Assembly: GCA_034676125.1 (NCBI GenBank)
Contig: JAUCCO010000001.1
Location: forward strand, 9,788 to 73,787
Origin: Bacteroidia bacterium
GTDB lineage: Bacteria > Bacteroidota > Bacteroidia > UKL13-3
Direction: 5' to 3'
Length of the DNA stretch: 64,000 bases
Part shown: in pieces, positions 22,466-45,226 of the stretch
How the letters are laid out: each line of letters begins with the position of its first letter
How positions within the stretch are numbered: position 1 is the first letter of the stretch
Notes under the pieces: model-generated
The model's input: only the letters and a program-made list of their open reading frames with translations
The model's database searches: none
Told to the model about the DNA's origin: nothing
Program-made: the position numbers and the translations under genes

Positions 22466-22470
22466 ATTAT

Positions 22471-22510
22471 AAAAGGCAAACACAACTATTTATTGTGTTT
22501 GCCTTTTTTA
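22471..22510 (+). terminator. Rho-independent terminator
   Basis: aaaggcaaacac / gtgtttgccttt stem followed by a T-run, just after the stop at 22465. Confidence 0.7.
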
Positions 22511-22540
22511 ACATCAATAAAATAAACACCAAACCTTTAT

Positions 22541-28500: not shown

Positions 28501-29515
28501 ATTAGGCGATACTTTAGTTACCAATGCTACATTTAATTTTGAAGCTAAAAAACTTTACAACATAAGAGTTAGGGTAACCGATGTAACAAATGCATATTTC
28601 GAAAAAGCATTTACCATTAATATTAATGATGAAAATGATGCACCAACTGGATTGAGCATTAGCAACAACTCATTATTGGAAAACAAAGCCACGTTAACCG
28701 AAGTGGGTAGTTTTACTACAACAGATGTGGATGCAGTTGATGCATTTACTTACAGTTTAATTGCCGGAACGGGAAGCACAGATAATGCCATGTTTATTAT
28801 TGAAGGTGCAACCTTGCGTAGTAATTTCTCTGCTAACTTCGAAAATAAATCAAGCTATTCAGTTCGTGTTTCTACAACAGATAAAGGTGGCCAAACATTT
28901 GAAAAAGTATTTGTAATAGATATTATTGATGTGAGTGAAAAACCAATGATTTTAAATCAAACATTCACCATGTCAGAAAACGACAGTGCAAATACCGTTT
29001 TAGGTACCATCACATCATCAAGCCCAGATGCTGGTGCTAACTTAAAATACAGTTTAACTGGAAAAGGAAGCGAGTTTTTTAATGTAGATGCAATAACTGG
29101 AGCACTAACCAATGTGGTTACTATTGATTATGAGAAAAACCGCAGATTTGATTTTAAGGTAATTGTAACAGATGTACAAGCATTACCACTATACGATACT
29201 GCAAATATTACAATAAAGGTTAGTGATGAAATTGAGGTTAAGCAGAAGTTACCAGCCAATAATTATATGTCGCCAAACAACGATGGGGTAAATGATGCAT
29301 TTGCAATAGATAACCCGCAATTGTACGTGGATTATAGCTTATCGGTTTACAACGAAAGTGGGATGGAGGTATTCCATGTAGCAAATAATTATCAAAACAA
29401 TTGGGAAGCCACATACAACGGAAAAACATTGCCAACTGGCGTTTATTTCTATGTGTTTTACAACAGCAAAACAGGCGATAAATTTACTGGAGCTTTAAAT
29501 ATTGTTAACCAATAA
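22541..29515 (+). CDS. Cadherin-repeat adhesin (~21 tandem cadherin-like domains) with T9SS type-B (gliding-motility-associated) C-terminal domain
   Basis: Signal peptide MKIKQLLYLALLFLVSKTTIAAAP. Iterated ~100-aa units NDAPT..EN..VGT..TDxD...TY.L..G.G...N..F.I....L.....DYE......IR..T.DG. C-terminus YMSPNNDGVNDAFAID...YFYVF. Confidence 0.85.
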   Translation: MKIKQLLYLALLFLVSKTTIAAAPTWSVNPALFQYSMTAVAVANVNCVELTSPSVRIGAFVGTELRGTALTSNVISGRYTASMIIYSNVTSNETVIFKMYNPTTDSIYDARVSVAFQDNANYGSSGNPFEIKNNNAPTAMQLSTNNINEGEPINTTVGTFTSTDIDSAETFTYSLVSGSGSTDNTNFNVSGNALRSSSVFNFGNKTSHNIRVRTTDANGCYFESTYTISVNDVNTAPSDIFITDSTVNENSAALTVVGAFSALDNDLSDTYSYSLVTGVGSTDNAKFNINGTNLRTLAVFNYEVKSSYSIRIKVTDGANNTFERVFTILVDDVNDNPTNILVNGSSDGTTFMENKPLGSVIGNLTTTDEDTANTFTYSFINTPGNNNSDFTIIGSQLRTNSLFDYETRQNYVVFVQTNDGNGGLFTKQLLLTVTDSNDAPTAINLTNNSITENLPANTFVAKLSATDPDASGTYTYTFVNGTGSSGNTNFVISNDSLYTALSFDYETTASYSIRLNVNDGSNGTLQQPFTINVINANDAPTDINITSNQIAENLPTNSTVGTLSTADQDVTNTFIYSLVSGVGSTDNASFNISGNTLRSSVSFDYETKNSYSVRVRTVDNGSATFEKVITINITDVVDAPTSMSISNDTINENLPTNTLVGTLNGVSQDPSAVFTYSFDNSVTGNNNSSFIISGNQVLSNGVFDYETKNVYTLYVNASTGPTSSFTKLIQIYIRNQNDAPTELSLSNNSVKENKAIGTFIGILTSTDADANSTFTYALASGIGATHNTMFSVRNDSLFTATSFDYEQQNTYSIRLKTTDNANAEFQKVFTINIIDSNDAPTAINLNSQSVSENLSAGATVGTISTIDADANQSFTYTLVAGVGATNNNMFNIQGSLLRTAASFNYEVQKEYKIRIQTNDGQGGIYSDTFTITVLNANDAPTNITLSNNVLVENRPVNSVVGTFTTTDEDSLDVFVYSFSTVTGNDNGAFFINGNQLRSNTNFDYESKQVYNVYIQTSDGAATFTKQFVINIADSNDAPTDIALATKSINENRPIGSFIGQFSTTDADAVSTFTYALTSGVGATNNTSFYISNDSLYSAAVLDFELQDSYSIRVKSTDNGSLSFQKVFTITVNDSNDAPTGINLTSSSISENQPIGTTIATINTVDPDAGQTFTYALVAGAGSTNNNLFSIQNGLLKTNALFNYEVKQHYTIRIQTNDGHGGTFADTFNITILNANDAPTNITMSNQKVTENKAIGSFVGSFSTTDEDTSDMFSYSFVSVGTNDNASFLITGNELRTNASFNYEVKQLYVVNIQTNDGNGGTYNKQFLININDSNDAPTDIILSNNTIIENQPALTFVGKLSTIDVDAGASTFAYTLVSGVGATHNSSFVISNDSLYSNTPFNFEQLATLSIRVRTTDNGLLSTEKVFTINVNDANDAPTALSLSNVIVSENVPLRTRIGILSTTDADITNTHNYSLVTGVGSADNASFIIIGNELKTNVALNYEVKNSYQVRIQTNDNNGGTFDQTFTINVNDSNDAPTNIILSNNNFVENRLINSVVGSFSTIDEDSTDSFIYSFANVTGNDNSAFYINGNQLRSNSSFDYETKQIYTLYVQTTDGYATFTKQFVINITDSNDAPTNVSLNNTSVEENLAPNAFVGLMYSADADANNTFTYTLVSGNGGTNNNSFIVRNDSLLTATMFDFEQKASYSIRLRTTDNGGLSYEKQFEITILNTNDTPTDITLSANEITENRSSRTAIGRFTTTDQDVANNFSYTFVTGAGDADNANFVVVGNELRSNKIFNYENKSAYTIRIQSNDGNGGTIEKAFNVVVIDSNDAPSNIVLSTNIIAENRPVSSKVCDISTIDQDTNDAFLYSFANVTGNNNSNFFIIGNELRTSATFDFETKNFYIVVLTTTDAAGTSFTKQFIINIKDSTDAPTAIDLGNNSVSENMPVNEFVGLLSATDPDQTTDFNYALVNGLGATDNASFIILGDTLVTNATFNFEAKKLYNIRVRVTDVTNAYFEKAFTININDENDAPTGLSISNNSLLENKATLTEVGSFTTTDVDAVDAFTYSLIAGTGSTDNAMFIIEGATLRSNFSANFENKSSYSVRVSTTDKGGQTFEKVFVIDIIDVSEKPMILNQTFTMSENDSANTVLGTITSSSPDAGANLKYSLTGKGSEFFNVDAITGALTNVVTIDYEKNRRFDFKVIVTDVQALPLYDTANITIKVSDEIEVKQKLPANNYMSPNNDGVNDAFAIDNPQLYVDYSLSVYNESGMEVFHVANNYQNNWEATYNGKTLPTGVYFYVFYNSKTGDKFTGALNIVNQ
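22937..29216 (+). repeat. Coding tandem repeat array, ~21 units of ~300 nt (cadherin-like domains), with a 3-unit higher-order periodicity in the central part
   Basis: Seen directly in the translated ORF. Units 7-18 fall into three alternating subtypes repeating every about 900 nt. Confidence 0.8.
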
Positions 29516-29533
29516 TTGATAGGAGAAATTATT

Positions 29534-30676
29534 ATGAAATTGAATAATAAAATATATACAAGCTTATTTGTAGCAGCGTTAATGGTTAATGTATCAAACG
29601 CACAAGACCGTACAAATTTATATACCAACTTGCTTAATCCTTTTTTAAGTAATCCAGCAATGGCAGGTAGTTACGATAATATACACGCCATGTTTAATGC
29701 TAAAACATTTGTTGGTGGAGTGGAGTCGTCTCCGCGCTTAATCAATTTTGGTTTACACTCACCATTTGCCAATAAAACAGGTGGGTTGGGTGTAAAAGCG
29801 GTTAGTCAATGGAGCGGTGCTTTTCAATTGGTTAATGTTGAAGGTGCATATAGCAAATTGGTTAAACTAACGGCAGACCAAACTTTAAGTTTAGGTTTGA
29901 GTTTAGGTTTTGTTCAAAATAACTTACGTACCGACTTATTTACTTCGCAAGTAGATATGGCCGACCCAACATTAAACAGCGGCAATCTTAATAAAATGCT
30001 TGTATCAGGTGGTGCAGGTTTGGTTTATCGCTATAAAAAACGTTTTGAGGCATACGCATCATCACCAATGATGCTTACTGGTACCGAAAGCTTAAACGGC
30101 TTTTTTATAGCAGGAGCTAACTATAAATTTACTTTAGATGAAGCTGGTGATTACGATTTAAAACCAATAGTAAATTACTATAATTTTGTAACTGCACCCA
30201 AAATGGTTGATGTGCTGCTTAGTGCCAGTTGGAACGAAACCGTATCATTAACTGGCGGATATAGAACTAACGGAGTTGTGGTTGCTGGCTTAGGATTTAA
30301 CTTTAAAAACGTAATGATTGCTTATAATTATTACCATAATACGGGTGATTTAAATCGTTTAGCTCCTGCATCAAACGAAATAGCCATTGCGTTTAATTTT
30401 AATAAACCAGAAAGAAGAGTAAGCAAGCCAGAGATAGTAAACGAGCAGATAATCCAAGACCAAATTGATAAGGTTAACGATAAAATAAACGGATTAATTA
30501 ACATCGAAAAAAGCAATCCAGGTTTAGTAAATGTTAAAACCGAAATGGTGAAGTTGAACAAAGATTTGGAAAGAATTTTAACAAAATACAAAATCGAAAA
30601 CATCGATCAGTTAAAGAAAATCAAAGAACTTCAAATCAATATCGAACTGCTAATTGCTAAGTACAATGTTAAGTAA
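29534..30676 (+). CDS. PorP/SprF-family T9SS outer-membrane protein with C-terminal coiled-coil extension
   Basis: Signal peptide MKLNNKIYTSLFVAALMVNVSNAQ after an AGGAGA ribosome-binding site. Gly/aromatic-rich beta-barrel-like body. Lies immediately downstream of a type-B CTD gene, the canonical SprB-SprF arrangement. C-terminal 80 aa are K/E/I-rich coiled coil. Confidence 0.65.
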   Translation: MKLNNKIYTSLFVAALMVNVSNAQDRTNLYTNLLNPFLSNPAMAGSYDNIHAMFNAKTFVGGVESSPRLINFGLHSPFANKTGGLGVKAVSQWSGAFQLVNVEGAYSKLVKLTADQTLSLGLSLGFVQNNLRTDLFTSQVDMADPTLNSGNLNKMLVSGGAGLVYRYKKRFEAYASSPMMLTGTESLNGFFIAGANYKFTLDEAGDYDLKPIVNYYNFVTAPKMVDVLLSASWNETVSLTGGYRTNGVVVAGLGFNFKNVMIAYNYYHNTGDLNRLAPASNEIAIAFNFNKPERRVSKPEIVNEQIIQDQIDKVNDKINGLINIEKSNPGLVNVKTEMVKLNKDLERILTKYKIENIDQLKKIKELQINIELLIAKYNVK

Positions 30677-31367
30677 GCTAAAATATATTTTAGGCTTATA
30701 CTTAATCGTGTTTGGACTAAGTGCAGTAAATGCACAATCCAAGCGCGATAGTAGCAATGCCGAAATACAGCAACAAGCGTTAGAAATGCGCCAAAAGCTG
30801 AATAAATACATGGCCGATAAACTGCTAGAAGAACAAGTAATTGCAAACCCAGGTATGCAACTGTTTTTCGATTCGATTAGTACATCAATAAGTAAACAAC
30901 AATTAGAAATTGATGAATTAAAAAAGCAGTTTGCAACTCTCGAAAAAGCCATAAAGGATGGAACGCTAACCGTAGGTAAAAATGCCAGAAAAAGCAGCGC
31001 AAATTTATTAGATACCTTAATTAATGATGTAGCTCGTGGTGCAACCTTTCACCGTATTGGTACTAAACAATTAAATCTTTATTTCCCATTTGACAACTCG
31101 AAAATAACCCCAGAACAGAAAGTAGAATTACGAAAGTTTTTAGGTTCGCGTAAAAGTAAGTTGGTAAAAGTAGTTGGATATACAGATTGGATAGGTACAG
31201 AAAAATATAATGAAGCTTTAGCAGCTGATAGGTGTTTAACAATTACAAGGGTTGTAAATGGGTTTAAAATACATCACCGTGTTTCTACCAACATAAACTG
31301 TAACAACGATACTTACAATCCCGATAAGGCTAAATGGTGTCGCAGGGTTGAGATTATTTTACAGTAA
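30666..31367 (+). CDS. OmpA-family protein (coiled-coil N-region plus OmpA/MotB peptidoglycan-binding C-domain)
   Basis: Signal peptide MLSKLKYILGLYLIVFGLSAVNAQ. C-terminal LYFPFDNSKIT...VKVVGYTDWIGTEKYNEALAADRCLTI is an OmpA_C-like motif set. The ORF track starts at 30654. Confidence 0.7.
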   Translation: MLSKLKYILGLYLIVFGLSAVNAQSKRDSSNAEIQQQALEMRQKLNKYMADKLLEEQVIANPGMQLFFDSISTSISKQQLEIDELKKQFATLEKAIKDGTLTVGKNARKSSANLLDTLINDVARGATFHRIGTKQLNLYFPFDNSKITPEQKVELRKFLGSRKSKLVKVVGYTDWIGTEKYNEALAADRCLTITRVVNGFKIHHRVSTNINCNNDTYNPDKAKWCRRVEIILQ

Positions 31368-31432: not shown

Positions 31433-34400
31433 CTAATTTGTATCTCTAATCAAAGTAACCGTTCCGTGTTCATTTCTTTCCATTCCACTTTTCTTTTTTA
31501 GGGTGATAATGTAATAATACACACCAGGAGGTATCTCTTCCCCTGCACCATTTTTACCATCCCAACACCAGTTTCCATCTGTGTTTTCGTATACCACAGT
31601 TCCCCAACGGTTGTATATTATAATATGATACTCATCGCACTTTTGGGTGATGCCAGTAATTTGGTAACAATCATTTATACCATCATTATTTGGTGTAAAC
31701 ACATTGGGAATGATAATTTGTGTGGAGCTATCACCATCAATAAAATAAGTGTTTTGCGCGGTATCTGCACAAAAAGTTCCTGGGCTAATTATTAAACTAA
31801 CCGTATATGTTCCCGTTAATGCATACTGGTGTTTAGGACTATATTCTAAACTACTGTCCTTATCCCCAAAATACCAAATATGTGGTACGCCTACATTGTT
31901 GCTTAGATTATTAAATATTACATCAAGCGAACAGCTATCTCGTTGCATCACAAAGCTTGCTTTGGCCGATAGGTTAACTTCAACAGTTTTTTCGATACTA
32001 TCAAGCACCTTGCACGACATGCTATCAATTACCACAAGCTTTATTTTATAGGTTCCCGCCAATTTTAGCGTGTCGCTAAATCCAATGTTTGATGTGCTAA
32101 GAAGTAAATTATTAAAGTACCAATAAAACTGTTTTCCATTTACACTTGTATTGGCAGCAGCAAAGTATGCAGGTGCACAAATTGCACTATCGGTTATGGT
32201 AAAATTAGCCTCAAGTAAATTACTATTTCCATTGTAGGTTATTGTATTAATTGCGGTATCTGCACAAGGTGTATTTGCATTGGTAATTAAAGTTATTAGA
32301 TAGGTGCTATCAATGCTGTAAACATGCGTTGGATTGGCTATATTACTGGTATTTCCATCACCAAACTGCCATAAATAAGTTGTTGGTGTTTGGCTACTAC
32401 TGCTCGATAAATTTTTGAACAAAACCAAATTTGAACAACTGTCTCGCTTAACTTCAAAAGCAGCCTTTGCACCAGGATACGAAGTAAATGATTTAACTAA
32501 CGTATCGTAAAGGTTACAAGTAAATGGATTATACACCACTAATTCAACATCAAAACTTGTGGCTTGAATAATGGTGTCTATATAATTTTGGTTAATGCTA
32601 TCCTTAATAACCTGATTAATTATCCAATAACTTTTAGCTGCATTAATGCTGTTATTATTTGCAGTAATAATGGTTGGTTCACAAATGGGTTCAGGTGTTA
32701 AATCAAACCTTGCTAACAACACGCGGTTATTAACATCAACCCTAACTTGTTTGGCAAGCACATGTTCGCACGGAAAACCTTTGTTAATGGTAAGCACCAC
32801 ATTGTACCAACCCGTATCAGCATATTTATGTATTGGATTAAATTGAGTTGATGTTGTTCCATCGCCAAAATTCCATAAAAAGTAAGCCGTATCACCCACT
32901 GTCATATTGGTATTGTTGGTAAAGTTTACCTTTAACGAACAACTGTCTAACAAGGCGGTAAACTCAGGAAACTTTTCACTTAATACACTAAAGGTTCTTT
33001 CAAACGAATCAACTAATATGCAAGTAGTGCTATCATGTACCACTAATTTTATCTTATAAATTCCTTGATAAACAATGGTATCAATACCGCTTGCACTTTG
33101 CGAAACCAGCGTGTTATTTACATACCAATAATGCTTTAATCCATTCTCACTCTCATTACGAGCTTCAATAATTATTGGAGCGCATCGTAGCGTATCGTTA
33201 GGAGAAAAATAAGCCCGTAAATTTCTACCATCGCGGCTATAATCTAAAGCGAAAACAGCCGTATCAGCGCAAAAACTGCCTGGGTCGGTTATTAATCTTA
33301 TTTGATATACTGCATTGGTGTTATAAAAATGAACTGGATTTTTTAGCGTACTGGTATCCCCATCACCAAAAAACCAAATAAACGGAACAGGTTGCCCATT
33401 GCCTGATGTGCTTTGGTTATACATAAATACTGCTGGTCCGCAACTATCTTGTACAACTGCAATTTTTGCTTGCGATGAGTTTTGAACGGTGAATGTTTTA
33501 ACCATCGAATCGACCATGTTACAGGCTAGGGGATTAAATACTTTTAGTTTTACGGTGTAACTACCAAGTGTTGTAAACGAGTCGGTGTAATTGATAGCAG
33601 TATCAACCAAAACATCATTTATGTACCAATAATTTTTAGTGGAATTGTATGAGTTGTTTACAAACAGCATCCGCTTATTTCCGCAACCATTTCTGGGTTC
33701 AATTTTAAAATCGGCTGTTAATACGCTGCCTTGCCTAAAATCAAACTTAAAAGTAGCATTGCTGCATCTTGGGCTTTTATTAGTTGGCGAATAGCTATTT
33801 GGTGTAGTTGGGAATGTGCCTGACGGACCCGCATTACAACTTGCACATACAGATTGGTACATAATTCCTCTTTTATCAAACCTACTTGTGCCGCCATCCA
33901 CGTGATCAGCGCCCCAAGGCTCACCAAAAAAAGTAGCATAATTTAAACTATCAGCATTGGCACTCAGTACAAATAAATAAAAATCGCTTCCATCAGTATT
34001 GGATAAATAGGCATTAGGGGTAACCGGTAAATTATTGGTAGTACTATTAAATCCTGCTGGGTTTAATGCCCGATAACGCGATTGGGAATTTACAATTCCA
34101 CCCCAAACAGAACCATAAATTCTGCCGCATACATCCACCATAAAAGCACTTGGCGACAAAGCATTGTATAAGCCACCACCACCAATTTGAGTAGAAAATA
34201 TAATACTAGATAAATTTGGCGAAAACTTGCTGATAAAAATATTTCCTTTACTAACGCTGTATGTTCCCGGTGTTACTAAAACACTGTCGTAGGTTTGGCC
34301 CATTACCACTATGTTTTCGCTTTGGTCTAGTTTTACAAAATGTGCTTGGTCGTAACTGCTGCTGCCCCAATAGCGCATGCCTAAGTTAGTAGTTAATGCA

Positions 34401-36013
34401 CTACTAAGCTTAACCACAAACCCATCGCTAATGCCACCACGATAATTGGCCATTGTGTAACCACTTGTTGGGCTAAGGTTTTGGCTTTGTGTACCACCTG
34501 CAACTACAATATCGCCATTGCTAAACACATCAATAGAATATAATGCATCGTGTTTGTTGCCGCCCAAATAAGTACAGTTTTTAATTGAAGTTAATGCCGC
34601 ATTTAGTCTATATACTACTCCATCTTGCCCATTGCCTTTTATGGGTTGAAATGCACCAACTGACACAGGCAGATTTGTAGAGCTGGTTGACGAAACCAAT
34701 ACCACATCTCCATTAGGTGCAAGCTGTATTTCGCCCCTAAACTCATCAGAGTAATTCATCCTAAGGGTATCGGCAATATTAACGCCATCTATACCATTTC
34801 CGCCTAAAAAAGTACTGCCTACTAAAGCACTTCCATTTGCGGTAAAACGTGTTACCGTTATATCAAACGTATCTGATTTTACACGAACAGCACCATTTGC
34901 ACTAACTGGAAAATTAGCAGATAATGTTACTCCTAAAACCAATAGCTGTTCGTTGGCATCGGCAATTAAACTTATTGGATATTCGTTTTTATCACCGCCC
35001 AAATAAGTGGCATACATTAAAGCAGTGCCATCATTATTGTATTTGCTAATGGCAATATCGCACGGAAAACCATACTGGGGCCAACTGCCTAAACCGCCAC
35101 CCCAAGTAGTTTGAAAAGCACCAGCATTTGTTGGGTATCGCCCATTAGGAAAATCGGTAGCATTACGTGCAATACCAGCGGTGTATAAATTTCCATTGTT
35201 ATCATACGTTGCGGTATGGCCAAAATTATCAACGCTGCTTCCGCTATAGGTACTAAAAATAAGCTCAGGGTCAATAATCAAGGTGTAATTTGGGTTGTAA
35301 TCACCCAACTCAAAACTTACGGTATTTTTGTTTAACACAAAATTGCAAACCACCTCTTGTTTATTGCCATTAATAAGTTGATAGGCATAAGGCTTGGTTT
35401 CGGTAAAAGTATTTACACTGGTTTTTATAACTAGGTTACCGTTTTTTAATTTAAGCTTTTCGGCACCGCTATATTGCATTTTTATTTGTTGGGTTGATGC
35501 CTTTGCCGATACCATAAAATCATACTTTAACCCTCCACTTGTTGATGGATAAACATGAGCAGAAACACCAGGGTACAATTGGGTGTAAATTATTTTATTA
35601 TAAGTTGGTACTTCACCTTTCCAAAGTGTTGCATCATTGCCATTAAAAAAATTGTAATAATGTGTTAGTTTGTCTTCGCCACTAATGGTATTAGCTGTAG
35701 CATTTAAAAAATTAACCCGAATGGCGTGCCTATTAATTATTTTAGATTTAAAAAGGTGTGGGTTTGATGTGTGGTTAAAATATTCGGCAACATCTTGTTC
35801 GTTTTCAAAAAAATATTGAAAGGCGGTAGGCTCCATAAAAACCTGTGCACCTTTTAAATTAATTAAATATTTTGATGGGTTAAGCCATTGTCCTTTGTTT
35901 GCAATAAACCCTGTATTTGCGGGCGGTGCATCACCTTGGTGTGCTTGCACATTGGCTTGTGGCAGCATAAACCAACACAATAAAATACTATACAATAACC
36001 GCTTTTTTAACAC
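31433..36013 (-). CDS. Large secreted beta-propeller plus PKD-repeat protein with T9SS type-B C-terminal domain
   Basis: Signal peptide MLKKRLLYSILLCWFMLPQANVQA. Four repeats of a two-domain ~240-aa unit carrying FGDG(T/D)TS..NP.H.Y (PKD-like). C-terminus NVFTPNNDGINDCYQI...YNRWGTVVYE...TVTLIR is the TIGR04131-like gliding-motility CTD. Confidence 0.85.
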   Translation of the reverse strand: MLKKRLLYSILLCWFMLPQANVQAHQGDAPPANTGFIANKGQWLNPSKYLINLKGAQVFMEPTAFQYFFENEQDVAEYFNHTSNPHLFKSKIINRHAIRVNFLNATANTISGEDKLTHYYNFFNGNDATLWKGEVPTYNKIIYTQLYPGVSAHVYPSTSGGLKYDFMVSAKASTQQIKMQYSGAEKLKLKNGNLVIKTSVNTFTETKPYAYQLINGNKQEVVCNFVLNKNTVSFELGDYNPNYTLIIDPELIFSTYSGSSVDNFGHTATYDNNGNLYTAGIARNATDFPNGRYPTNAGAFQTTWGGGLGSWPQYGFPCDIAISKYNNDGTALMYATYLGGDKNEYPISLIADANEQLLVLGVTLSANFPVSANGAVRVKSDTFDITVTRFTANGSALVGSTFLGGNGIDGVNIADTLRMNYSDEFRGEIQLAPNGDVVLVSSTSSTNLPVSVGAFQPIKGNGQDGVVYRLNAALTSIKNCTYLGGNKHDALYSIDVFSNGDIVVAGGTQSQNLSPTSGYTMANYRGGISDGFVVKLSSALTTNLGMRYWGSSSYDQAHFVKLDQSENIVVMGQTYDSVLVTPGTYSVSKGNIFISKFSPNLSSIIFSTQIGGGGLYNALSPSAFMVDVCGRIYGSVWGGIVNSQSRYRALNPAGFNSTTNNLPVTPNAYLSNTDGSDFYLFVLSANADSLNYATFFGEPWGADHVDGGTSRFDKRGIMYQSVCASCNAGPSGTFPTTPNSYSPTNKSPRCSNATFKFDFRQGSVLTADFKIEPRNGCGNKRMLFVNNSYNSTKNYWYINDVLVDTAINYTDSFTTLGSYTVKLKVFNPLACNMVDSMVKTFTVQNSSQAKIAVVQDSCGPAVFMYNQSTSGNGQPVPFIWFFGDGDTSTLKNPVHFYNTNAVYQIRLITDPGSFCADTAVFALDYSRDGRNLRAYFSPNDTLRCAPIIIEARNESENGLKHYWYVNNTLVSQSASGIDTIVYQGIYKIKLVVHDSTTCILVDSFERTFSVLSEKFPEFTALLDSCSLKVNFTNNTNMTVGDTAYFLWNFGDGTTSTQFNPIHKYADTGWYNVVLTINKGFPCEHVLAKQVRVDVNNRVLLARFDLTPEPICEPTIITANNNSINAAKSYWIINQVIKDSINQNYIDTIIQATSFDVELVVYNPFTCNLYDTLVKSFTSYPGAKAAFEVKRDSCSNLVLFKNLSSSSSQTPTTYLWQFGDGNTSNIANPTHVYSIDSTYLITLITNANTPCADTAINTITYNGNSNLLEANFTITDSAICAPAYFAAANTSVNGKQFYWYFNNLLLSTSNIGFSDTLKLAGTYKIKLVVIDSMSCKVLDSIEKTVEVNLSAKASFVMQRDSCSLDVIFNNLSNNVGVPHIWYFGDKDSSLEYSPKHQYALTGTYTVSLIISPGTFCADTAQNTYFIDGDSSTQIIIPNVFTPNNDGINDCYQITGITQKCDEYHIIIYNRWGTVVYENTDGNWCWDGKNGAGEEIPPGVYYYIITLKKKSGMERNEHGTVTLIRDTN

Positions 36014-36100
36014 GTAACTATAAAACTAATGGTGTGCTAAGTTAGATAAATATTGCTGTAATTGCGTTGCATAAAGAAAGTTTTAACATTTGTGGGGGCA

Positions 36101-36116
36101 ATTGCAACCTTGCAAT
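36101..36116. promoter_or_regulatory. Operator-like inverted repeat ATTGCAA-cc-TTGCAAT in the divergent promoter region upstream of the ECF sigma gene
   Basis: 7-bp perfect inverted arms about 35 nt upstream of the GTG start at 36151. A related gtaattgcgttgcat motif lies about 40 nt further upstream. Confidence 0.35.
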
Positions 36117-36150
36117 GCATATATTCATCTAAAATTTAACCAGTAAAAAC

Positions 36151-36702
36151 GTGAGCAAACAAAACGAGCATGAACTTATACAGGAGTGTTTGAAAGGCAA
36201 TAGGTTAGCACAAAAATCGCTATACGACACCTATTCAAAAACTATGTATGGAGTGTGCTTGAGGTACAGTAGCAATGCCGATGAGGCTAAAGATATATTG
36301 CAAGATGGGTTTGTGAAGGTTTTTACTAAAATGGGGCAGTTTAGTTTTGCTGGTTCGTTTGAAGGTTGGATGAAACGCATTTTTGTAAATACCGCATTAG
36401 AGTTTTATAGGGTAAACAAAGTGCACATGTATCACAGTGATGTTGATGCAGCTTTTAGCCAACCCCACCACGATTTTACAGTAGAACGCATGAGCCAAAA
36501 AGAAATTTTATTGGCCATAAACAACTTAGCTCCTGGTTATCGCACTGTTCTTAATATGTTTATTATTGAAGGTTATAGCCACGCAGAAATTGCCGAATTA
36601 TTGGGAATTAGTGAAGGTACTTCAAAATCGCAGTTAAGCAGGGCAAGGGTGCAGCTTCAAGAAGCACTATTAAAAACGAAAAACAATAGTAATGAAAGAT
36701 AA
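36151..36702 (+). CDS. ECF-subfamily RNA polymerase sigma-70 factor
   Basis: Region 2 (LYDTYSKTMYGVCLRY...DILQDGFVKVF) and region 4 HTH (YRTVLNMFIIEGYSHAEIAELLGISEGTSKSQLSRAR). GTG start with an in-frame stop just upstream. Confidence 0.85.
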   Translation: MSKQNEHELIQECLKGNRLAQKSLYDTYSKTMYGVCLRYSSNADEAKDILQDGFVKVFTKMGQFSFAGSFEGWMKRIFVNTALEFYRVNKVHMYHSDVDAAFSQPHHDFTVERMSQKEILLAINNLAPGYRTVLNMFIIEGYSHAEIAELLGISEGTSKSQLSRARVQLQEALLKTKNNSNER

Positions 36703-37588
36703 AATAAATTTAGATGAACTGTTAAAGCATGAAATGGGCAACCTTTCTGCGCCTCCCCCGGCCAATGCTTGGCAGTTTATCAGCAACCAACTGCCAATTG
36801 TTCCAGCTGCGCCTATTGCGGCTTCGGTTAAAACAATTGCAGGTATTAGCAGTAAAGTTATTATTGCCACCACTATTGGTGTAGTTGCAATATCAGCTGC
36901 TGCATGGGTGATAATTAATAAAGATAATAAACCCACAAAAATCAATAACACGCTGGTTCAGCAACAAAAAGATATTGCAACTGATAATAACATCACATCA
37001 ACACAAATTGAACCGATAAATAAAACGGTTGAGCAAGAAAATCCAGTAAATAAAGAAGTGATTAAAACTGTTAAAAAACCAACAGCAAAATCAATCCAAA
37101 CAAAAAACTTGGGTAAAAAGCCTGCTACTAATTTTAGCAATACCGAGAAAATAGTTGAGGCCAATAATACACCTGAAGTTATTCAGCAAATTGTAGTTGA
37201 TAACCATAAAGAAATAGTAACACCATCGCAACCGCAAAATACAAATCAACCCAAAGCAGAAAATACAGAAATAAACCCATTAAATAATGTAGTTGATGAA
37301 GCGTTTTTAAAACCCAATATTCCAAATGTTTTTACACCAAATGCGGATGGTTATAATGATGAATTTGTAATTACAATTGAAGGAGAAACGCTGTTTGATT
37401 TAAAAATTACCGATGCAAATGGCTATGTAGTATTTGAAAGTAAAGATAAAAATAAACATTGGAATGGAACCAATCAAAAAACGGGTAAAAGCTGCGACCA
37501 GGGCTTATATATACTTGTTTTTAGATATCAAATAGCAGGGATGAAAGAGCCTAAAATTGAGCAAGGTTTTGTATTACTAAAACAATAA
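36692..37588 (+). CDS. Anti-sigma-like single-pass membrane protein whose only periplasmic module is a T9SS type-B C-terminal domain
   Basis: Overlaps the sigma gene by 11 nt. A 55-aa N-terminal cytoplasmic segment is followed by one TM helix (VIIATTIGVVAISAAAWVII), then a ~130-aa N/K/T/Q/P-rich linker. C-terminus IPNVFTPNADGYNDEFVI...YVVFESKDKNKHWNGT...GLYILVF matches the type-B CTD of neighbouring cargo. Confidence 0.6.
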   Translation: MKDKINLDELLKHEMGNLSAPPPANAWQFISNQLPIVPAAPIAASVKTIAGISSKVIIATTIGVVAISAAAWVIINKDNKPTKINNTLVQQQKDIATDNNITSTQIEPINKTVEQENPVNKEVIKTVKKPTAKSIQTKNLGKKPATNFSNTEKIVEANNTPEVIQQIVVDNHKEIVTPSQPQNTNQPKAENTEINPLNNVVDEAFLKPNIPNVFTPNADGYNDEFVITIEGETLFDLKITDANGYVVFESKDKNKHWNGTNQKTGKSCDQGLYILVFRYQIAGMKEPKIEQGFVLLKQ

Positions 37589-37703
37589 TTTGACAATTTA
37601 AATTTTAAAATATATGTTAGCACATTATTATCAATTAAAAATTATGCCCAACTTACCAACAGATGTTGGCCGGCTGCGGCTCAAAAACAAACAATCAAGT
37701 ACA

Positions 37704-40700
37704 ATGAAAAAACAAGTACTAAAGTTTTATTTATTACTTCTAATTTCGCTTTTGGGTGTTAATTATGCCCAAGCACAATCATTGGCACTTACGCTATCGT
37801 CTCCAACGGTATGTTTAGGTGATCAGATTACAATGGATGCTGCGCTTTCGGGTTTGCCCTCTGGTGTTACAGCTAGTAGTTGTGGTTTTGATTTTGACAA
37901 TGATGGCGTTATTGAAAACACTGTTCCAGGTGGTGGACCCAATTATAATACGCAGTATTTATATATGGTACCAGGAGCAAAAACAATTAAGGTTACTGTT
38001 ACTTTAAGTAATGGTGGTAAGGTAGAAAACACCATACCTATTATTGTTTATCGATTACCTTTACCATATGCATCAGTGGTTGGCCCAGACATACAATGTT
38101 TTAGGGGAAACTTGGTTACGTTAACCAATAATTCAACCAAAACAGATAACCGTATATATAAACTTGAAATTATATGGGGTGATGGTAGGGTAGATGTAAC
38201 ACCTTTCCCATTTCTTGGTCAACAGGTATCTCATTCATATAACACAAATGGTAAATTTGATATTACTCTTAGGGTTACAGATAGTTTAGGTTGTAAAAAA
38301 GACACCACCTATTCGGGCATGTTAACCATTAAACAAAACATTTCTCCTACATTTGTAGTTTTGGGTAATCGTGGTTGTGTTTGCAGTCCTTTTACATTAA
38401 AAAATCACCATACTGTGCCATTTAGTAATTTAAACAGTTACACTTGGGATTTTGGCGATGGCACTTCAATGACTCGTGCTAAACCCTGGAATTTGCCTCT
38501 AGATTCTTTAGATTATGATACCATCACTCACCTTTATTGTAAAAATGGTACGTTTTATCCCGCATTAACAATTGAAGACAACACGGGTTGTATCGATAGT
38601 TTTCGCCTTACACCCACTTACCCTGGTAAAAAACCAGAAAATATTGTAATCGACCAAGACGCATCGTCACATTTAGATGGTTTTGATATGGTACAACGTG
38701 ATTCTGTTTGTTTCGGTTATGAAGGATTTAGTACTTTGGTTTTTCGCCAAACTCCTAATCCAATGATTGATCCAGGTAATGGCGAGTTGCTTTGGAATTT
38801 TGATGATCCACCTTCGCAACAAAAAAACTTTAACAACTCTCAGTGGCAGCCTACACATACGTTTGCAAAAGGCTTAGGTTTGTATAATGTCACATTAACT
38901 TTATGGCCATTACAACCAAACCCTACCTGTAAAAAAATTGACACGGTAACCATTGAAGTGATAGGTCCACAAGCGAGGATTGAAGATCCAATAAATCAAA
39001 TTTTACTTAATCCACTAGAGCAAAACCAGTGCCTTCCATTGGCATCAGGTAAATATAACGTGGTTAATTTTGTAAATACCAATTTGTGGTACAAGTCCGA
39101 TCACGTATTTACACGTTGGGATTTTGGCGATGATGTTGCTCCACAATGTACTTCATTCTTGGTTCCAAAAGCGGGTTATCCACCTTTAGGTGGCTGGGCT
39201 ACTGCACAAGATCAATATGCTTATAGCGATGGTTTTTGGAGACAAGGTAATAAAGTATTTGAAGGAAGACGTTTAGATTGCCGTTATTCTGCTGATACAC
39301 TTCCTATCCATCAGTATACAAGCTGGGATGTAATATACAACTGGTACCTTAAAGGCCACGACTTTATGCCTTGGGATTTTAATGCCTATTCGCTTAATCC
39401 TGCAGATACACTAGCAACTGCAAATCCGAAGAAAATCCTAGTAACACCGGAAGATTCTGTGTTTTGGGGCAAACCAGTTTATTTAAATCCGCAAGATGGT
39501 ACTTGGAGTTTAACGCAACAATCTGGTCCAGCACCTTATGGGCTATGGCCTCGAATTGATACCATTAAGTCTGTAGATGAGAATGGGCAGCCCAACCCAC
39601 AAGACTTAAAACCATATAATAGATTTACTTTACAAAATGGTGCACCAGATCCTGTTCAAGGCTTTTGGGGTAATACCAAACGTGGTGGTTATGGCTTTTT
39701 CCCTAAAGGATTTGTTGTAGACCCACTTATTGATTCGATGGAGGCTAAGTATACAGATTTTGCTGGAAACCGAATAATACACAATTATGATGCAATGGCT
39801 GATCGCACAAGAACCTTGTACCGCTACTTATTTGATAAGGCAGTACAAAAGTGTTATAATGTTGAACAGTTTGAGAAAGATTCGTTTAATAATGTTGGTG
39901 CTAAAACATATTTAGTGCTAAACGATACTTTAGACTTAGATACCTTAGATTGTAAAGACGATGATAAAGTACTAATAAAACTAATGCGCCCAGATGCTAG
40001 TGGATTAGGCGTAAAAGGTAAAGAATGTCCTGGAAGTTATTATAACCCCGACCAAGCTGGTATACAGTTCCTGTTAGGCTCTGTTGATGATATGTTAGGC
40101 CAATATCCTGGAGTTAGCCCTGATTGTGGTGCAGCATGGATAAGGGTAAACCTAGATTCGTTTGCAGATAGGAGAGATCAAAGACCTTGTGAATTAGATG
40201 GGTTTGTTAACTATACTGGAGCACCAGGACCTGCTCCCGAGGCTGGTGGTGTATTTTCTACCACTCCGGGTGGTTTAACCTATCCTCCATTCTCGCTTCA
40301 GGCAGATTATAACCAATATTTTATGCCACCTAACAGGTGGAACGCAGCAGGTGGAACAAGTTTCTGGTATCACTATGGCACAAATACAATTCCTCTAGAA
40401 ACCTCTCCTGTTAGTGGGGTAACATTTTTTCCACCGGCTAACCCAACTGGCGATATTACCATTGGTTTAGTTATTGGTACTGGTGACCCGAATAACCCTT
40501 GTATCTCGGATACGGTTTGGTATCATAATTTGCTAAATATTACCGATTTAGATGGTCGTTTTTATGTAGACCCTACTTACCACCCTATAACAAACATACC
40601 TACCAATGGTGCTTGCAAATATTATTGCAAAAGCGATATTGTAAATTTTGTTTACCTAGATAGTACACAAGAGTATATACATAGCAGTACCATTGATTGG

Positions 40701-43175
40701 GGTGATAACTCGGTTACGGTAGATAGTTTTTACTATAGCCCAATACCTGGATTAACTGATGGTTATTTTGTGGATGGTTTCCGCAGAGAACGTTATGTTT
40801 TCTGGTTTGGCAAATGTGGCGAAAAAGTAATTGGCGATCAACTTAGTATGACACCATTCCCTAACGGGTTACCTAATGCAAACGTTACCATTCGCTATAT
40901 TGATAATTATACTGCGCGTATGTATCATCCTGCCAATAATCCTTATGGTTCATTAATTCGTGTAGGCGATGTGGCAACTGGAGATTCGGTTATTTGGTCA
41001 GAGTGTGGTGTAGTCTATACAGTTGCAAATACAGACAGTATTAAAACTTTTTATCGCACCGAGTATATGGATGCGGCTAAAATGTTGTTGCCTGTTAAAC
41101 ACCAATATTGGGCAAGTTCTTATCAATCTGATTGCAAAATTTCGGGATCTGCTCCTAGAGCTATTCGTCATCAGTTAGTAAGTACTAAAGAGTGTAAAAA
41201 ACAAACAGTTGATAGCAAACTTTTGGTTCGTGGAGTTATAAATGAAGTTAAACCTAGGGATGCCAGTTTGAGATTTGACAGTATTTTCTGTAAAAACGAA
41301 CCTGTTCATTTCTATGATTCAATACGCTATTATCGTAAAGATTGTTCGTTATCTCACCCAATTTTTAACCCTAATTTTGATCCTAGAACAAACGCAACTT
41401 ATGGTCCTCCATTTAATGGTTATCATTATGATACCATAGATTATTGGAGAGATGGTTCGATAGATATCAATAATTTTTATCCAAACGGAGATTACATAGA
41501 AAAGGTTAAATATTATTTTGGTGATGGAGACTCTGCTATGTGGACAAGTCCAGTGCATCAATATAAAAACCCTGGACAGTATCTTGTAACCATGTTAACC
41601 CGTGATAAAAACGGATGTTGGGATACTGCGTATTGTTCGGTTTATGTTTCAGACCCGAAAGCTGTTCCAGTAGTTAAGCCAGGTACTTTTAACTGTGGCA
41701 CCCCAATTACTCTCTGGGATCGTTCTACCATGTCGCCACTTGCGGGTTTCCCTAATAACCCATTAGATAGTATACGTTTTGATCCAACAATGGGTGTTGG
41801 CAATCAAATAAATAGAAACTACTGGTGGTTTGGTGAGCGTAAAACTGCGGATACCTTAATATATGCTGATGCACAATTTATTGATACTGCTATTTGGAAT
41901 TATCGTGGTAATGGTGCTTTCAGAATTAAATTGGTGGTTGAAACTGCTCAAGGTTGTAAAGACACTGGATTTGTTAATATTAACATTGCTGGTCCACGTC
42001 CGTTCTTAAAAGTAATAACTGATACTGTTGGATGTACACCATTTACAGTTAAAGTTGTAAATATGGCAGACGTGTTTGGTGGCACTGGTCCTGCAGATAA
42101 GCCTACAAGACGTACTGATATCCTTTGGGGTGATGCAAATCAACAAACATCAAAAAGTTTAATTCAATATGATACACTTACGTTCACCTATAACGATTCA
42201 GGAGTGTTTTATATTTTTGCTAGAAGTGATGATAACGATCCGCAATCTGATAATAATGGTTGTAAAATAGTTTACTATCCAGATACTTTTAATAATAACA
42301 ATGCTCCTATCAGAATAAATGTACGGAGATCTTACCCTGCTGAAATTATTTTAGATAAGCAAGTGGTATGTGTTGATCAGCCGTTCTTAATAACAAATGT
42401 TTCTGATACCATAAGTTATACAGAGTTTAAGTACACCTTGGTCAGTTCAGACGGTACCGAAATAGACACCCTTATTAAAAATAACATAGACCTAAAGTTT
42501 ACCAAAACTATTGGCGATACCGGTGATTATAAGGTGTATTTAGAACCAACTAAGGTGGCTCCTGGTTTGCCATTCTGTAGGTTGTTTGATACTGTAGATA
42601 TAAAAGTGGTAAGGCCATTTGCTAGTTTTGAGATTGATTCTGCTAAAAACTCTTCGTTTTTTAAATTTAGAAATACATCATTATCTTCAAGTGAATACAC
42701 TTGGACTGCAACAAAAAATGGTGTAGTAATAGCAGGACCAGTTGATAAGGTAGAAGCTGATAGAGATTGGTCGTATGATTTTGGTAAAGATACTGGAGAT
42801 GTAACTATTTGTTTAGAAGCATTTACTCCAGACCCTGGTAAGCCAGAATGTATGGACAGTGTTTGTCAAGTAATCTCTTATAACTTTATTGTTGAGCTTG
42901 AAATATACAATGTATTTACGCCTAGCCCTAAAGATGGTAATAATGACGTATTTGATATTAAAATTAAAGGTCAAAAAGAATACGATTTGGTTATTTACAA
43001 CCGTTGGGGAACTAAAGTATTTGAAAGTAAAGACGCAAAACGCGATTGGGATGGAACAAACATGAACGATGGTAGCGCTTGTCCTTCTGGTACCTACTTC
43101 TACGTATTTAAATACGAATTAGTAAACGGTAAAAAGGATACTGTAAATGGCACAGTTACTTTAATTAGAGATTAA
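37704..43175 (+). CDS. Large secreted PKD-domain protein with T9SS type-B C-terminal domain
   Basis: Signal peptide MKKQVLKFYLLLLISLLGVNYAQAQ (the ORF track starts at 37614). Several WDFGDG..../YYFGDGDS PKD signatures. C-terminus YNVFTPSPKDGNNDVFDI...YNRWGTKVFESKDAKRDWDGT...TVTLIRD. Confidence 0.85.
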   Translation: MKKQVLKFYLLLLISLLGVNYAQAQSLALTLSSPTVCLGDQITMDAALSGLPSGVTASSCGFDFDNDGVIENTVPGGGPNYNTQYLYMVPGAKTIKVTVTLSNGGKVENTIPIIVYRLPLPYASVVGPDIQCFRGNLVTLTNNSTKTDNRIYKLEIIWGDGRVDVTPFPFLGQQVSHSYNTNGKFDITLRVTDSLGCKKDTTYSGMLTIKQNISPTFVVLGNRGCVCSPFTLKNHHTVPFSNLNSYTWDFGDGTSMTRAKPWNLPLDSLDYDTITHLYCKNGTFYPALTIEDNTGCIDSFRLTPTYPGKKPENIVIDQDASSHLDGFDMVQRDSVCFGYEGFSTLVFRQTPNPMIDPGNGELLWNFDDPPSQQKNFNNSQWQPTHTFAKGLGLYNVTLTLWPLQPNPTCKKIDTVTIEVIGPQARIEDPINQILLNPLEQNQCLPLASGKYNVVNFVNTNLWYKSDHVFTRWDFGDDVAPQCTSFLVPKAGYPPLGGWATAQDQYAYSDGFWRQGNKVFEGRRLDCRYSADTLPIHQYTSWDVIYNWYLKGHDFMPWDFNAYSLNPADTLATANPKKILVTPEDSVFWGKPVYLNPQDGTWSLTQQSGPAPYGLWPRIDTIKSVDENGQPNPQDLKPYNRFTLQNGAPDPVQGFWGNTKRGGYGFFPKGFVVDPLIDSMEAKYTDFAGNRIIHNYDAMADRTRTLYRYLFDKAVQKCYNVEQFEKDSFNNVGAKTYLVLNDTLDLDTLDCKDDDKVLIKLMRPDASGLGVKGKECPGSYYNPDQAGIQFLLGSVDDMLGQYPGVSPDCGAAWIRVNLDSFADRRDQRPCELDGFVNYTGAPGPAPEAGGVFSTTPGGLTYPPFSLQADYNQYFMPPNRWNAAGGTSFWYHYGTNTIPLETSPVSGVTFFPPANPTGDITIGLVIGTGDPNNPCISDTVWYHNLLNITDLDGRFYVDPTYHPITNIPTNGACKYYCKSDIVNFVYLDSTQEYIHSSTIDWGDNSVTVDSFYYSPIPGLTDGYFVDGFRRERYVFWFGKCGEKVIGDQLSMTPFPNGLPNANVTIRYIDNYTARMYHPANNPYGSLIRVGDVATGDSVIWSECGVVYTVANTDSIKTFYRTEYMDAAKMLLPVKHQYWASSYQSDCKISGSAPRAIRHQLVSTKECKKQTVDSKLLVRGVINEVKPRDASLRFDSIFCKNEPVHFYDSIRYYRKDCSLSHPIFNPNFDPRTNATYGPPFNGYHYDTIDYWRDGSIDINNFYPNGDYIEKVKYYFGDGDSAMWTSPVHQYKNPGQYLVTMLTRDKNGCWDTAYCSVYVSDPKAVPVVKPGTFNCGTPITLWDRSTMSPLAGFPNNPLDSIRFDPTMGVGNQINRNYWWFGERKTADTLIYADAQFIDTAIWNYRGNGAFRIKLVVETAQGCKDTGFVNINIAGPRPFLKVITDTVGCTPFTVKVVNMADVFGGTGPADKPTRRTDILWGDANQQTSKSLIQYDTLTFTYNDSGVFYIFARSDDNDPQSDNNGCKIVYYPDTFNNNNAPIRINVRRSYPAEIILDKQVVCVDQPFLITNVSDTISYTEFKYTLVSSDGTEIDTLIKNNIDLKFTKTIGDTGDYKVYLEPTKVAPGLPFCRLFDTVDIKVVRPFASFEIDSAKNSSFFKFRNTSLSSSEYTWTATKNGVVIAGPVDKVEADRDWSYDFGKDTGDVTICLEAFTPDPGKPECMDSVCQVISYNFIVELEIYNVFTPSPKDGNNDVFDIKIKGQKEYDLVIYNRWGTKVFESKDAKRDWDGTNMNDGSACPSGTYFYVFKYELVNGKKDTVNGTVTLIRD

Positions 43176-45135: not shown

Positions 45136-45226
45136 AAAATGTGCCACTGTTTATCAGTGGTTTATTTTTTTATATATTTGGTTTATATTATAAACTAGTT
45201 TATTGTTGTGTACAGATTTTATAAAC

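Follow-up and report, generated by a model that had tools for sequence, protein, structure and literature searches.

Within the 64,000-nucleotide stretch of a Bacteroidia bacterium genome analysed here (hereafter the window), a gene for an extracytoplasmic function (ECF) sigma factor overlaps a gene for a 298-residue single-helix membrane protein, here called the partner, which ends in a type-B-like C-terminal domain (CTD) of type IX secretion systems (T9SS). The sigma/partner pair probably ties the expression of adhesins to the machine that secretes them. More specifically, we read it as an autoregulated ECF sigma factor and its membrane-anchored anti-sigma factor serving giant type-B T9SS adhesins, with a checkpoint that opens when the partner is engaged by the secretion machinery, and we judge the chances of this reading to be roughly even. 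In adopting it, we infer that the partner binds the sigma factor, that its CTD is recognised by the T9SS, and the sign of the response.

The first gene encodes an ECF (group 4) sigma-70 factor of 183 residues. Its product matches Sigma70_r2 (42.9 bits, cutoff 24) and Sigma70_r4_2 (63.6 bits, cutoff 25.7) in Pfam and TIGR02937 (87.1 bits, cutoff 42.9) in NCBIfam, and the scan of both libraries returned no match to region 1.1 or region 3, so that the protein consists of the sigma-2 and sigma-4 regions only. The cutoffs of more specific equivalog or subfamily models were missed (TIGR02985, 87.5 against 126.4 bits; NF058625, 83.6 against 130 bits), and the nearest solved structures in the PDB are SigW, SigH, SigE and RpoE. 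The sigma and partner genes overlap by 11 nt (ATGAAAGATAA). A preliminary description of this DNA had reported the two open reading frames and their overlap; both were recovered at the same coordinates, with the hidden Markov model (HMM) matches of the sigma factor above cutoff.

We fetched 31 related loci (L001-L031); the counts of sigma linkage and of promoter motifs refer to 25 non-redundant loci. In 25/25 of these, the partner gene is immediately preceded by an ECF sigma gene, and the same order is found in L027-L031. The two genes mostly overlap by 4-16 nt and are otherwise separated by a gap of 2-14 nt (2 nt in L010, 14 nt in L003); this overlap or spacing of less than 15 nt suggests translational coupling. 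Identity to the sigma factor of the window is 67-96% in the window's clade and falls to 46-48% beside the distant partners of L007, L008 and L010. The ECF sigma factor is obligately paired with the single-helix partner. Since the partner occupies the anti-sigma position and its linkage to the sigma gene is conserved, its N-terminus would be expected to bind the sigma factor, following the standard reasoning for proteins encoded beside ECF factors (PMC7826278, PMC7712824).

The partner consists of four parts (coordinates in Table 1). At its N-terminus stands a conserved module with the consensus NIDELLKxEhxxhxPxPPxxxWxxIxxxL, in which D8, L10, L11, E14, P23 and W27 are invariant in the orthologue alignment (A1), and which is presumed to be the sigma-binding part. 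Mean pairwise identity within the family is 60% over the N-terminal 34 residues, 21% over the linker and 71% over the CTD. The AlphaFold2 model, computed with 21 family sequences, contains two short N-terminal helices (residues 7-15 and 26-32), a disordered stretch from residue 34 to 218 with a predicted local distance difference test score (pLDDT) below 50, and a four-strand beta domain at residues 232-296 (pLDDT 80-89) accompanied by a less ordered part. The transmembrane segment is modelled without confidence; by hydropathy, the segment at residues 56-77 is the only strong candidate, with a mean Kyte-Doolittle value of 2.4 against 1.0 for the next best window (19-residue windows). This segment begins only at residue 56, behind the conserved hydrophilic module, and a cleavable signal peptide is lacking; we infer an orientation with the N-terminus in the cytoplasm and the C-terminus in the periplasm. 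Between the helix and the CTD there is no domain and the model is disordered. The tether that fills this interval is rich in E, T, S, N, K, P and Q, and its sequence is unconserved. Residues 1-205 have no family match in Pfam or NCBIfam, and neither library finds a FecR domain in the partner. The preliminary description of a single-helix protein that lacks a passenger and shares its CTD family with the neighbouring cargo is borne out, and the bitopic topology is probable. The partner has neither the cleavable Sec signal peptide nor the passenger domain nor the adjacent shuttle gene of a canonical T9SS cargo.

The CTD matches the Pfam family CHU_C (PF13585) with 55.4 bits (cutoff 27) over residues 209-295 of 298. 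The type-B model TIGR04131 reaches 32.2 bits on the whole partner and 34.7 bits on its last 120 residues, against a cutoff of 35 and values of 47-65 bits for the cargo CTDs of the window, and the type-A model TIGR04183 gives 19.7 bits (cutoff 23). When the partner CTD is aligned with the three cargo CTDs of the window, 13 columns are invariant and are spread across all conserved blocks. The partner keeps PNxFTPNxDGxND, L-x-I, VFE, W-x-G, G-x-Y and the final G-x-V-x-L strand, whose pattern G-x-[VI]-x-L-x-[KR] is retained, and it lacks the NRWG block of the cargo CTDs. Across the family, 86-88 residues separate the first CTD motif from the end of the protein. In seven loci, the CTDs fall into three separate orthologous groups, with identities within each class of 49.5% for the partner, 55% for the downstream cargo and 61% for the divergent cargo; the partner CTD is 40% identical to that of the downstream cargo and 32% identical to that of the divergent cargo. 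Judged by these matches, the partner CTD is a genuine member of the CHU_C family placed at the extreme C-terminus. The HMM check of the earlier assignment to type B thus gave a divided answer, with CHU_C at twice its cutoff and TIGR04131 just under its own at best. No type-B CTD has a solved structure that could serve for comparison, and these domains are described as four strands plus a less ordered part, like the model of the partner (PMC12618676).

The same architecture recurs widely. A word-indexed search returned 69 full-length orthologue clusters of 291-314 residues and 32-73% identity, together with weaker matches (P0070, P0071, P0073, P0075) that share the N-terminal motif and the CHU_C end and are otherwise diverged, some of them with an intervening PKD domain. 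When the N-terminal profile was used by itself, the word-indexed search found a single 50-residue fragment. We also searched 1.84 billion representatives (clustering threshold 50% identity) exhaustively with a HMMER profile and obtained 452 cluster representatives at E<=1e-30. Among the best 150 matches, 149 are 285-465 residues long and match the profile from end to end with the same architecture. All 136 newly returned matches that were inspected (P0091-P0227 except P0094) open with the N-terminal motif, with the consensus NIDELLKxxFxxFxPxAPxxxWxxIxxxL, and have a hydrophobic helix whose start falls at residue 39-76. In the 147 members whose first CTD motif could be located by pattern, the helix starts between residues 39 and 76 (median 57), and the distance from the end of the helix to the CTD has a median of 140 residues, an interquartile range of 135-150 and a minimum of 127; these values are to be read with the caveat that a profile of about 300 positions tends to select proteins of similar size. 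Named family records come from metagenome-assembled genomes labelled Bacteroidia or Bacteroidota, one branch being labelled Crocinitomicaceae or Brumimicrobium, and are annotated as 'gliding motility-associated C-terminal domain-containing protein', 'PKD domain-containing protein' or 'hypothetical protein'. On these profile matches, the sigma/partner architecture is taken to recur in hundreds of Bacteroidota lineages.

A minority of the family (about 350-465 residues; P0070, P0073, P0191, P0241, P0299 and others, and loci L010 and L030) carries one PKD domain between the helix and the CTD, and these members may stand midway between true cargo and the form that lacks a passenger. One NCBI record of P0241, which belongs to the cluster of P0142, is attributed to the cyanobacterium 'Oscillatoria amoena NRMC-F 0135'; the identical sequence is also labelled as a Bacteroidota metagenome-assembled genome, and the cyanobacterial label probably reflects a contaminating Bacteroidota contig in that assembly.

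The genes around the pair point to its likely targets. Three contexts were distinguished. In the first, a four-gene module consists of a divergent gene for a DUF7948-PKD-CHU_C protein, the sigma gene, the partner gene and a gene for a PKD-CHU_C protein of 1800-2100 residues; it is present in the window and in L001, L003, L005, L012-L026 and L028. In the second, the sigma and partner genes are followed by a PKD-CHU_C gene of about 1500 codons between unrelated flanks (L030, L031, L008), and this cargo is a homologue, 27% identical, of the downstream cargo of the window. The third context, met in three loci, is taken up below. In the window, the 1526-residue divergent cargo scores 227 bits for DUF7948, 155 for PKD_4, 83 for CHU_C and 65 for TIGR04131, and an orthologue occupies the same divergent position in 21 fetched loci (L001-L006, L012-L021, L023-L026 and L028, some of them duplicates). 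The downstream cargo scores 116 bits for PKD_4, 75 for CHU_C and 47 for TIGR04131; its open reading frame opens at 37614, which would give 1853 residues instead of the 1823 counted from the signal-peptide Met. Homologues follow the pair in 20 non-redundant loci (24 fetched loci with duplicates), three of which are distant (L008, L030, L031). No terminator-like site or structure lies between 37588 and 37704, and the downstream cargo is probably co-transcribed with the pair. A further protein of the window, of 2324 residues, combines 14 cadherin repeats with a type-B CTD (CHU_C 67 bits, TIGR04131 50 bits). Type-B CTDs had been claimed beforehand for the flanking and the cadherin proteins, and scores of 67-83 bits for CHU_C and 47-65 bits for TIGR04131 bear this out. 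The neighbours of the pair are PKD/CHU_C proteins, with no TonB-dependent receptor among them, and the module loci contain no histidine kinase.

Two further observations concern the cargo side. An in-frame ATG stands 26 nt past the partner stop codon, and the downstream cargo has its signal-peptide Met 90 nt further on (window 37589-37703); the same ATG is found at L001, L003, L005 and L028, and gene callers take it as the start. The frame it opens begins with a conserved 'MLA(N/H/T)YY', and the next 25 or so codons are unconserved. The 'MLA(N/H/T)YY' stretch may belong to a genuine N-terminal extension, or what is conserved may be a DNA or RNA element (ATGTTAGCA); 'TTAGCAC' also occurs behind the -10 element of the minus-strand promoter. 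Further downstream (window 45203-46114), a 303-residue PCMD-domain protein with a type-A CTD is encoded after asd and a Thioredoxin_9 gene. A similar Por_Secre_tail protein is found at the same place in L001 and L005, and the PCMD protein belongs to the general synteny of the clade, outside the sigma module.

A shared promoter-like motif links the sigma gene to these cargo genes. It combines an AAC-containing -35-like element with a -10-like element (C/G)(A/G)TCT, which is how ECF promoters usually look. The 'CGT box' (PMC9723704) is noted for comparison. A block TGCAACC...(A/G)TCT recurs at a constant distance in the regions upstream of the sigma genes. In the whole window, GCAAC[CG]-N14-20-TCT[AG]A has exactly two matches when both strands are searched, and both (36104-36132 on the plus strand, 36070-36042 on the minus strand) fall within the 137 bp that separate the divergent cargo gene from the sigma gene, back to back and with identical spacing. 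The minus-strand ATCT ends 30 nt (ATCTAA 28 nt) upstream of the GTG of the divergent cargo gene. A weight matrix built from the other loci ranks the plus-strand site as the top match of the window with 22.8 bits, to be compared with the best scores of 100 random 64-kb sequences (mean 13.6, standard deviation 2.7, maximum 23.0). Across the 25 non-redundant loci (394 kb), [GC]CAAC[CG]-N17-[AG]TCT has 40 matches. Most of them (24/40) lie 30-57 nt upstream of the sigma gene, in 24/25 loci and including those whose sigma factors are 46-48% identical to that of the window; L025, the only locus missed, has a TCATT variant. Another 11 are divergent sites within the sigma/cargo gap, in genomes that are related and have differing spacers. 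One match lies 9 nt after the partner stop codon, before the downstream cargo of L030, and four are elsewhere.

The arrangement of these sites suggests positive autoregulation of a sigma-partner-cargo operon together with direct control of the divergent cargo gene. That the pair controls the adjacent cargo genes had already been suggested, and the suggestion gains comparative support from the triad or tetrad conserved within unrelated flanks and from the shared motif. Conservation of the pair next to type-B cargo, proposed beforehand as a check, was found in most loci, those with unrelated flanks included, and not in L007, L027 and L029.

Two other details were noted around the motif. The only other window match to the relaxed form GCAACC-N17-ATCT, at 18873 on the minus strand, falls inside the gene for a 3173-residue protein, on the opposite strand, and is most likely due to chance. 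The short leader that separates the presumed -10 element from the sigma GTG (36133-36150) contains a conserved block, AACCGGTAAAAACGTG, which also occurs in orthologous loci and persists where the adjoining sequence diverges; it could mark the transcription start or the translation-initiation context of the GTG start codon.

Table 1. Position and strand of the genes, promoter-like motifs and partner segments of the sigma module in the window.
Feature	Position	Strand	Description
Divergent cargo gene	31433-36013	-	1526 aa: signal peptide, DUF7948, PKD repeats, type-B CTD
ECF-type promoter-like motif GCAACG-N17-ATCT (then AA)	36044-36070	-	Faces the divergent cargo gene
ECF-type promoter-like motif GCAACC-N17-ATCT	36104-36130	+	47 nt upstream of the sigma GTG
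ECF (group 4) sigma-70 gene	36151-36702	+	GTG start, 183 aa; Pfam and NCBIfam matches
Partner gene	36692-37588	+	ATG start, open reading frame of 298 aa
Partner residues 1-34, conserved N-terminal module	36692-36793	+	Conservation; two predicted short helices
Partner residues 56-77, single transmembrane helix (putative signal anchor)	36857-36922	+	Hydropathy
Partner residues 78-205, low-complexity tether	36923-37306	+	Low pLDDT, low identity, kept length
Partner residues 206-298 and stop codon, type-B-like T9SS CTD (CHU_C)	37307-37588	+	PF13585 match
Downstream cargo gene	37704-43175	+	1823 aa from the signal-peptide Met; PKD repeats and type-B CTD

In the mechanism that we favor, the 34-residue N-terminus of the partner would hold the sigma factor in the cytoplasm, and the single helix would cross the inner membrane. 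A tether of at least 127 disordered residues would then span the periplasm and present the type-B-like CTD to the SprA translocon, to a PorP/SprF-family shuttle, or to both. Binding of type-B CTDs by PorP/SprF shuttles (PMC9143113, PMC12618676) is a precedent for such a contact. In this model the CTD would serve as a sensor and not as a secretion tag, as the preliminary description had proposed. An extended chain measures 0.36 nm per residue. The contour length computed for at least 127 residues exceeds about 45 nm, a span sufficient for reaching the outer membrane; this would account for a tether whose length is kept and whose sequence is free to vary. Engagement of the tethered CTD by the machinery, by pulling, by threading or by exposing the tether to proteolysis, would inactivate the anti-sigma factor and free the sigma factor. 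The latter would transcribe from GCAACC-N17-(A/G)TCT promoters, its targets being its own operon (sigma, partner and downstream PKD cargo) and the divergent PKD cargo gene. Giant adhesins would in this way be made only when the T9SS can export them, which amounts to a secretion-competence checkpoint. A more specific form, in which the T9SS threads the CTD through SprA onto a PorP/SprF shuttle or pulls it with its proton-motive-force-driven motor and so destroys the anti-sigma factor mechanically or proteolytically, is put forward tentatively, as a possibility that we hold to be rather doubtful.

Several results weigh against the checkpoint reading, beginning with the direction of the response, engagement on or engagement off, which is a guess. 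At the N-terminus of the partner, no recognisable anti-sigma domain was found (class I anti-sigma domain/zf-HC2, RskA or any other described family); isolated N-termini retrieved nothing from Pfam even at E<=10, the N-terminal profile had 0 matches in the PDB at E<=10, and some 35 conserved residues are too few for the classical four-helix class I domain. At the other end, the TIGR04131 alignment reaches only positions 2-58 of the 85 of the model, with a score under the cutoff. A Foldseek comparison of the partner model with the PDB gave no match at E<=0.001: the best hits are generic beta-sandwiches (E 0.016), and the third rank is taken by the type-A CTD of a T9SS substrate complex (NucA, 8glk_D; E 0.017), which is compatible with a CTD and is not diagnostic. 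The CTDs of the partner and the downstream cargo are no more similar within a locus (40.1%) than between loci (40.2%), hence there is no sign that the two have co-evolved. On the DNA side, the minus-strand site is not in the top 10 of the window for the weight matrix, which was trained on sigma-proximal sites and from which this site differs by a G for the expected C after GCAAC and by a different spacer. In L001, L003, L024 and L025, module loci at a greater distance, the minus-strand motif is also missing or degenerate. The case for this site rests on the core -35/-10 pattern and the identical spacing, as well as on uniqueness in the window and conservation in 11 loci. Finally, in the third genomic context (L007, L027 and L029), the pair has no adjacent cargo gene.

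In those three loci, synteny is conserved, with an AhpC/Redoxin-family gene on one side of the pair and a DUF6962 gene on the other, and the promoter motif of the sigma gene is kept; Crocinitomicaceae and Brumimicrobium are the names given to relatives in this branch.

These points leave room for other explanations, of which the strongest reverses the sign of the response and is, in our estimate, unlikely. Here the tethered CTD would mimic cargo and compete for a limiting type-B shuttle or translocon, and a docked CTD would keep the anti-sigma factor intact and the sigma factor off; in a variant, accumulating periplasmic cargo would displace the CTD, and either way the result would be negative feedback on cargo load. 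Type-B CTDs bind PorP/SprF shuttles, which are limiting (PMC12618676, PMC9143113) and scarce enough to restrict the secretion of overproduced substrates (PMC12618676). The partner CTD is closest to that of the presumably co-transcribed cargo (40% against 32% for the divergent one). The cargo genes of the module, moreover, have no adjacent porP/sprF-like gene and would therefore be 'orphan' substrates that share a shuttle encoded elsewhere; such type-B substrates without an adjacent shuttle gene are known (PMC12618676). The sequence is nevertheless uninformative on the sign, positive autoregulation fits a switch-like ON at least as well, and the absence of same-locus co-evolution between partner and cargo CTDs speaks against competition, too.

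Somewhat less probable still is the explanation that keeps the sigma/anti-sigma pair and regards the beta-sandwich as an ordinary periplasmic sensor, co-opted for some other ligand (part of the envelope, for instance, or a PKD domain of the cargo, or a molecule from the environment) and unrelated to recognition by the T9SS. The truncated, sub-cutoff TIGR04131 match would be expected of such a sensor, as would the generic Ig-like sandwich fold, the lack of the NRWG block, the three loci without a neighbouring cargo gene and the fact that partner CTDs form a conserved clade of their own (49.5% identity among themselves against 32-40% to cargo CTDs). Against it, the CHU_C match covers the full length of the family at twice the gathering score, and the domain is always protein-terminal, its first motif lying 86-88 residues ahead of the stop codon, a placement that secretion CTDs require. 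The last strand also keeps G-x-[VI]-x-L-x-[KR], and the pair repeatedly adjoins type-B cargo genes. A sensor held on at least 127 disordered residues makes better sense if its target lies at the outer membrane or close to it.

The least likely of the three, which we consider improbable, makes the 298-residue protein a membrane-anchored accessory or assembly factor of the T9SS for the neighbouring adhesins, for instance a placeholder or cap for a PorP-like shuttle (compare PG1035) or a link between such a shuttle and the inner membrane, which would share no more than a transcript with the sigma factor that induces the system: the N-terminus that matches no anti-sigma family, the probable co-transcription with cargo and the structural PorP-PorE complex formed by PG1035, itself a small type-B CTD protein (PMC9143113), agree with it, but the sigma gene is an invariant neighbour even where no cargo is adjacent (L007, L027, L029), the two genes overlap or are less than 15 nt apart, and the cytoplasmic module is strongly conserved and tracks the divergence of the sigma factor. 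A conserved N-terminal module encoded beside a sigma gene is the standard signature by which an anti-sigma factor is called in ECF classification (PMC7826278, PMC7712824).

The identity of a shuttle that might receive the partner CTD was also considered. The window contains a PorP/SprF gene (29516-30676; PorP_SprF 135.7 bits) followed by an overlapping gene of the OmpA family (PorE-like; 30654-31367), and the preliminary description had proposed the former as a docking partner. This proposal was rejected: both genes lack homologues throughout the 31 fetched loci, so the two form a cassette independent of the sigma module, and with their position directly after the cadherin adhesin gene they are best assigned to that adhesin. 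The order type-B substrate, shuttle, PorE-like protein is a published arrangement (PMC12618676, PMC9143113). The region 12944-31367 as a whole comprises two tandem giant adhesin genes and then the PorP/SprF and OmpA-family genes. The first adhesin (3173 residues) is of the Laminin_G_3 kind and carries a type-A CTD (Por_Secre_tail; TIGR04183 44.8 bits); the second is the 2324-residue cadherin protein, with the PorP/SprF gene immediately after it.

Compared with the classical pairs RpoE-RseA and SigW-RsiW and with short class II anti-sigma factors such as CnrY, the module has in common a sigma factor reduced to regions 2 and 4, an overlapping partner gene immediately downstream, a partner with one helix and, as predicted, a short cytoplasmic N-terminus and an extracytoplasmic C-terminus, and a presumably autoregulated ECF-type promoter with an AAC-containing -35 element. 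It departs from them in the N-terminal module, which with its roughly 35 residues and two helices corresponds to no described anti-sigma domain, and in an exterior made of a disordered tether and a sorting domain instead of a folded sensor or protease-target domain. The likeness to FecA-FecR-FecI, also raised in the preliminary description, holds for the concept of an outer-membrane machine that signals through a bitopic inner-membrane protein to an ECF sigma factor inducing neighbouring genes. It does not extend to a FecR domain, a TonB-dependent transducer or any sequence relation, and the periplasm would here be bridged by the partner's own tether and CTD. The logic also resembles that of FlgM and sigma-28, where the anti-sigma factor carries a secretion recognition signal and late or cargo genes await a working apparatus. 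FlgM, however, is soluble and exported whole from the cytoplasm, whereas the partner is membrane-anchored and could be engaged only by its periplasmic end, and the two are not homologous.

The nearest conceptual precedent is the PorA-PorXY-SigP system of Porphyromonas gingivalis (PMC7712824, PMC12152298), in which a T9SS CTD is a periplasmic signal that ultimately controls an ECF sigma factor; the likeness is in concept only. The CTD of PorA acts as the periplasmic ligand of the kinase PorY (PMC12152298), PorA tethered to the inner membrane still signals (PMC7712824, PMC12152298), and it is the work on PorA that introduced the CTD as both secretion signal and regulator. PorA itself has a cleavable signal peptide, a FimH-like passenger and a type-A CTD, serves as ligand of a histidine kinase and regulates genes for T9SS components. 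In the module described here, by contrast, the CTD is type-B-like and fused to a presumed anti-sigma factor, no kinase or two-component system is involved, and the targets would be cargo genes. With the type-B proteins SprB-SprF, Fjoh_3952-Fjoh_3951 and PG1035-PorP-PorE (PMC12618676, PMC9143113), the partner shares a C-terminal domain of the CHU_C/TIGR04131 type with the same conserved blocks, and PG1035 illustrates that a small type-B CTD protein can be a component and not cargo. Unlike substrates of the SprB-SprF kind, the partner lacks a cleavable signal peptide, a passenger and an adjacent porP/sprF-like gene, its TIGR04131 score falls slightly short of the cutoff, and it is probably anchored in the inner membrane.

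The preliminary description knew of no characterisation of this architecture. This agrees with our search of the full-text literature for anti-sigma or ECF factors in combination with the T9SS, type-B CTDs, TIGR04131 or the product name, which yielded no account of it, most subscription-journal papers lying outside that search. How the expression of T9SS cargo is matched to secretion is little understood beyond PorXY-SigP-PorA of P. gingivalis, as is the recognition of type-B CTDs in the periplasm. If the checkpoint reading is true, the pair would be a widespread single-protein link from a T9SS sorting signal to an ECF sigma factor, and the partner would represent an anti-sigma input domain of a new class, coupled to a defined promoter motif and to a regulon of giant PKD adhesins that is small and predictable. 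It would also offer a natural transcriptional read-out of type-B secretion status, and a minimal, passenger-free type-B CTD with which recognition by the shuttle or the translocon could be studied. If, more specifically, the T9SS threads or pulls the tethered CTD and so destroys the anti-sigma factor, the latter would be a pseudo-substrate of the T9SS whose linker of at least 127 residues acts as a periplasm-spanning ruler, and hundreds of Bacteroidota lineages would possess a FlgM-like, secretion-driven transcriptional checkpoint for their type-B adhesins.

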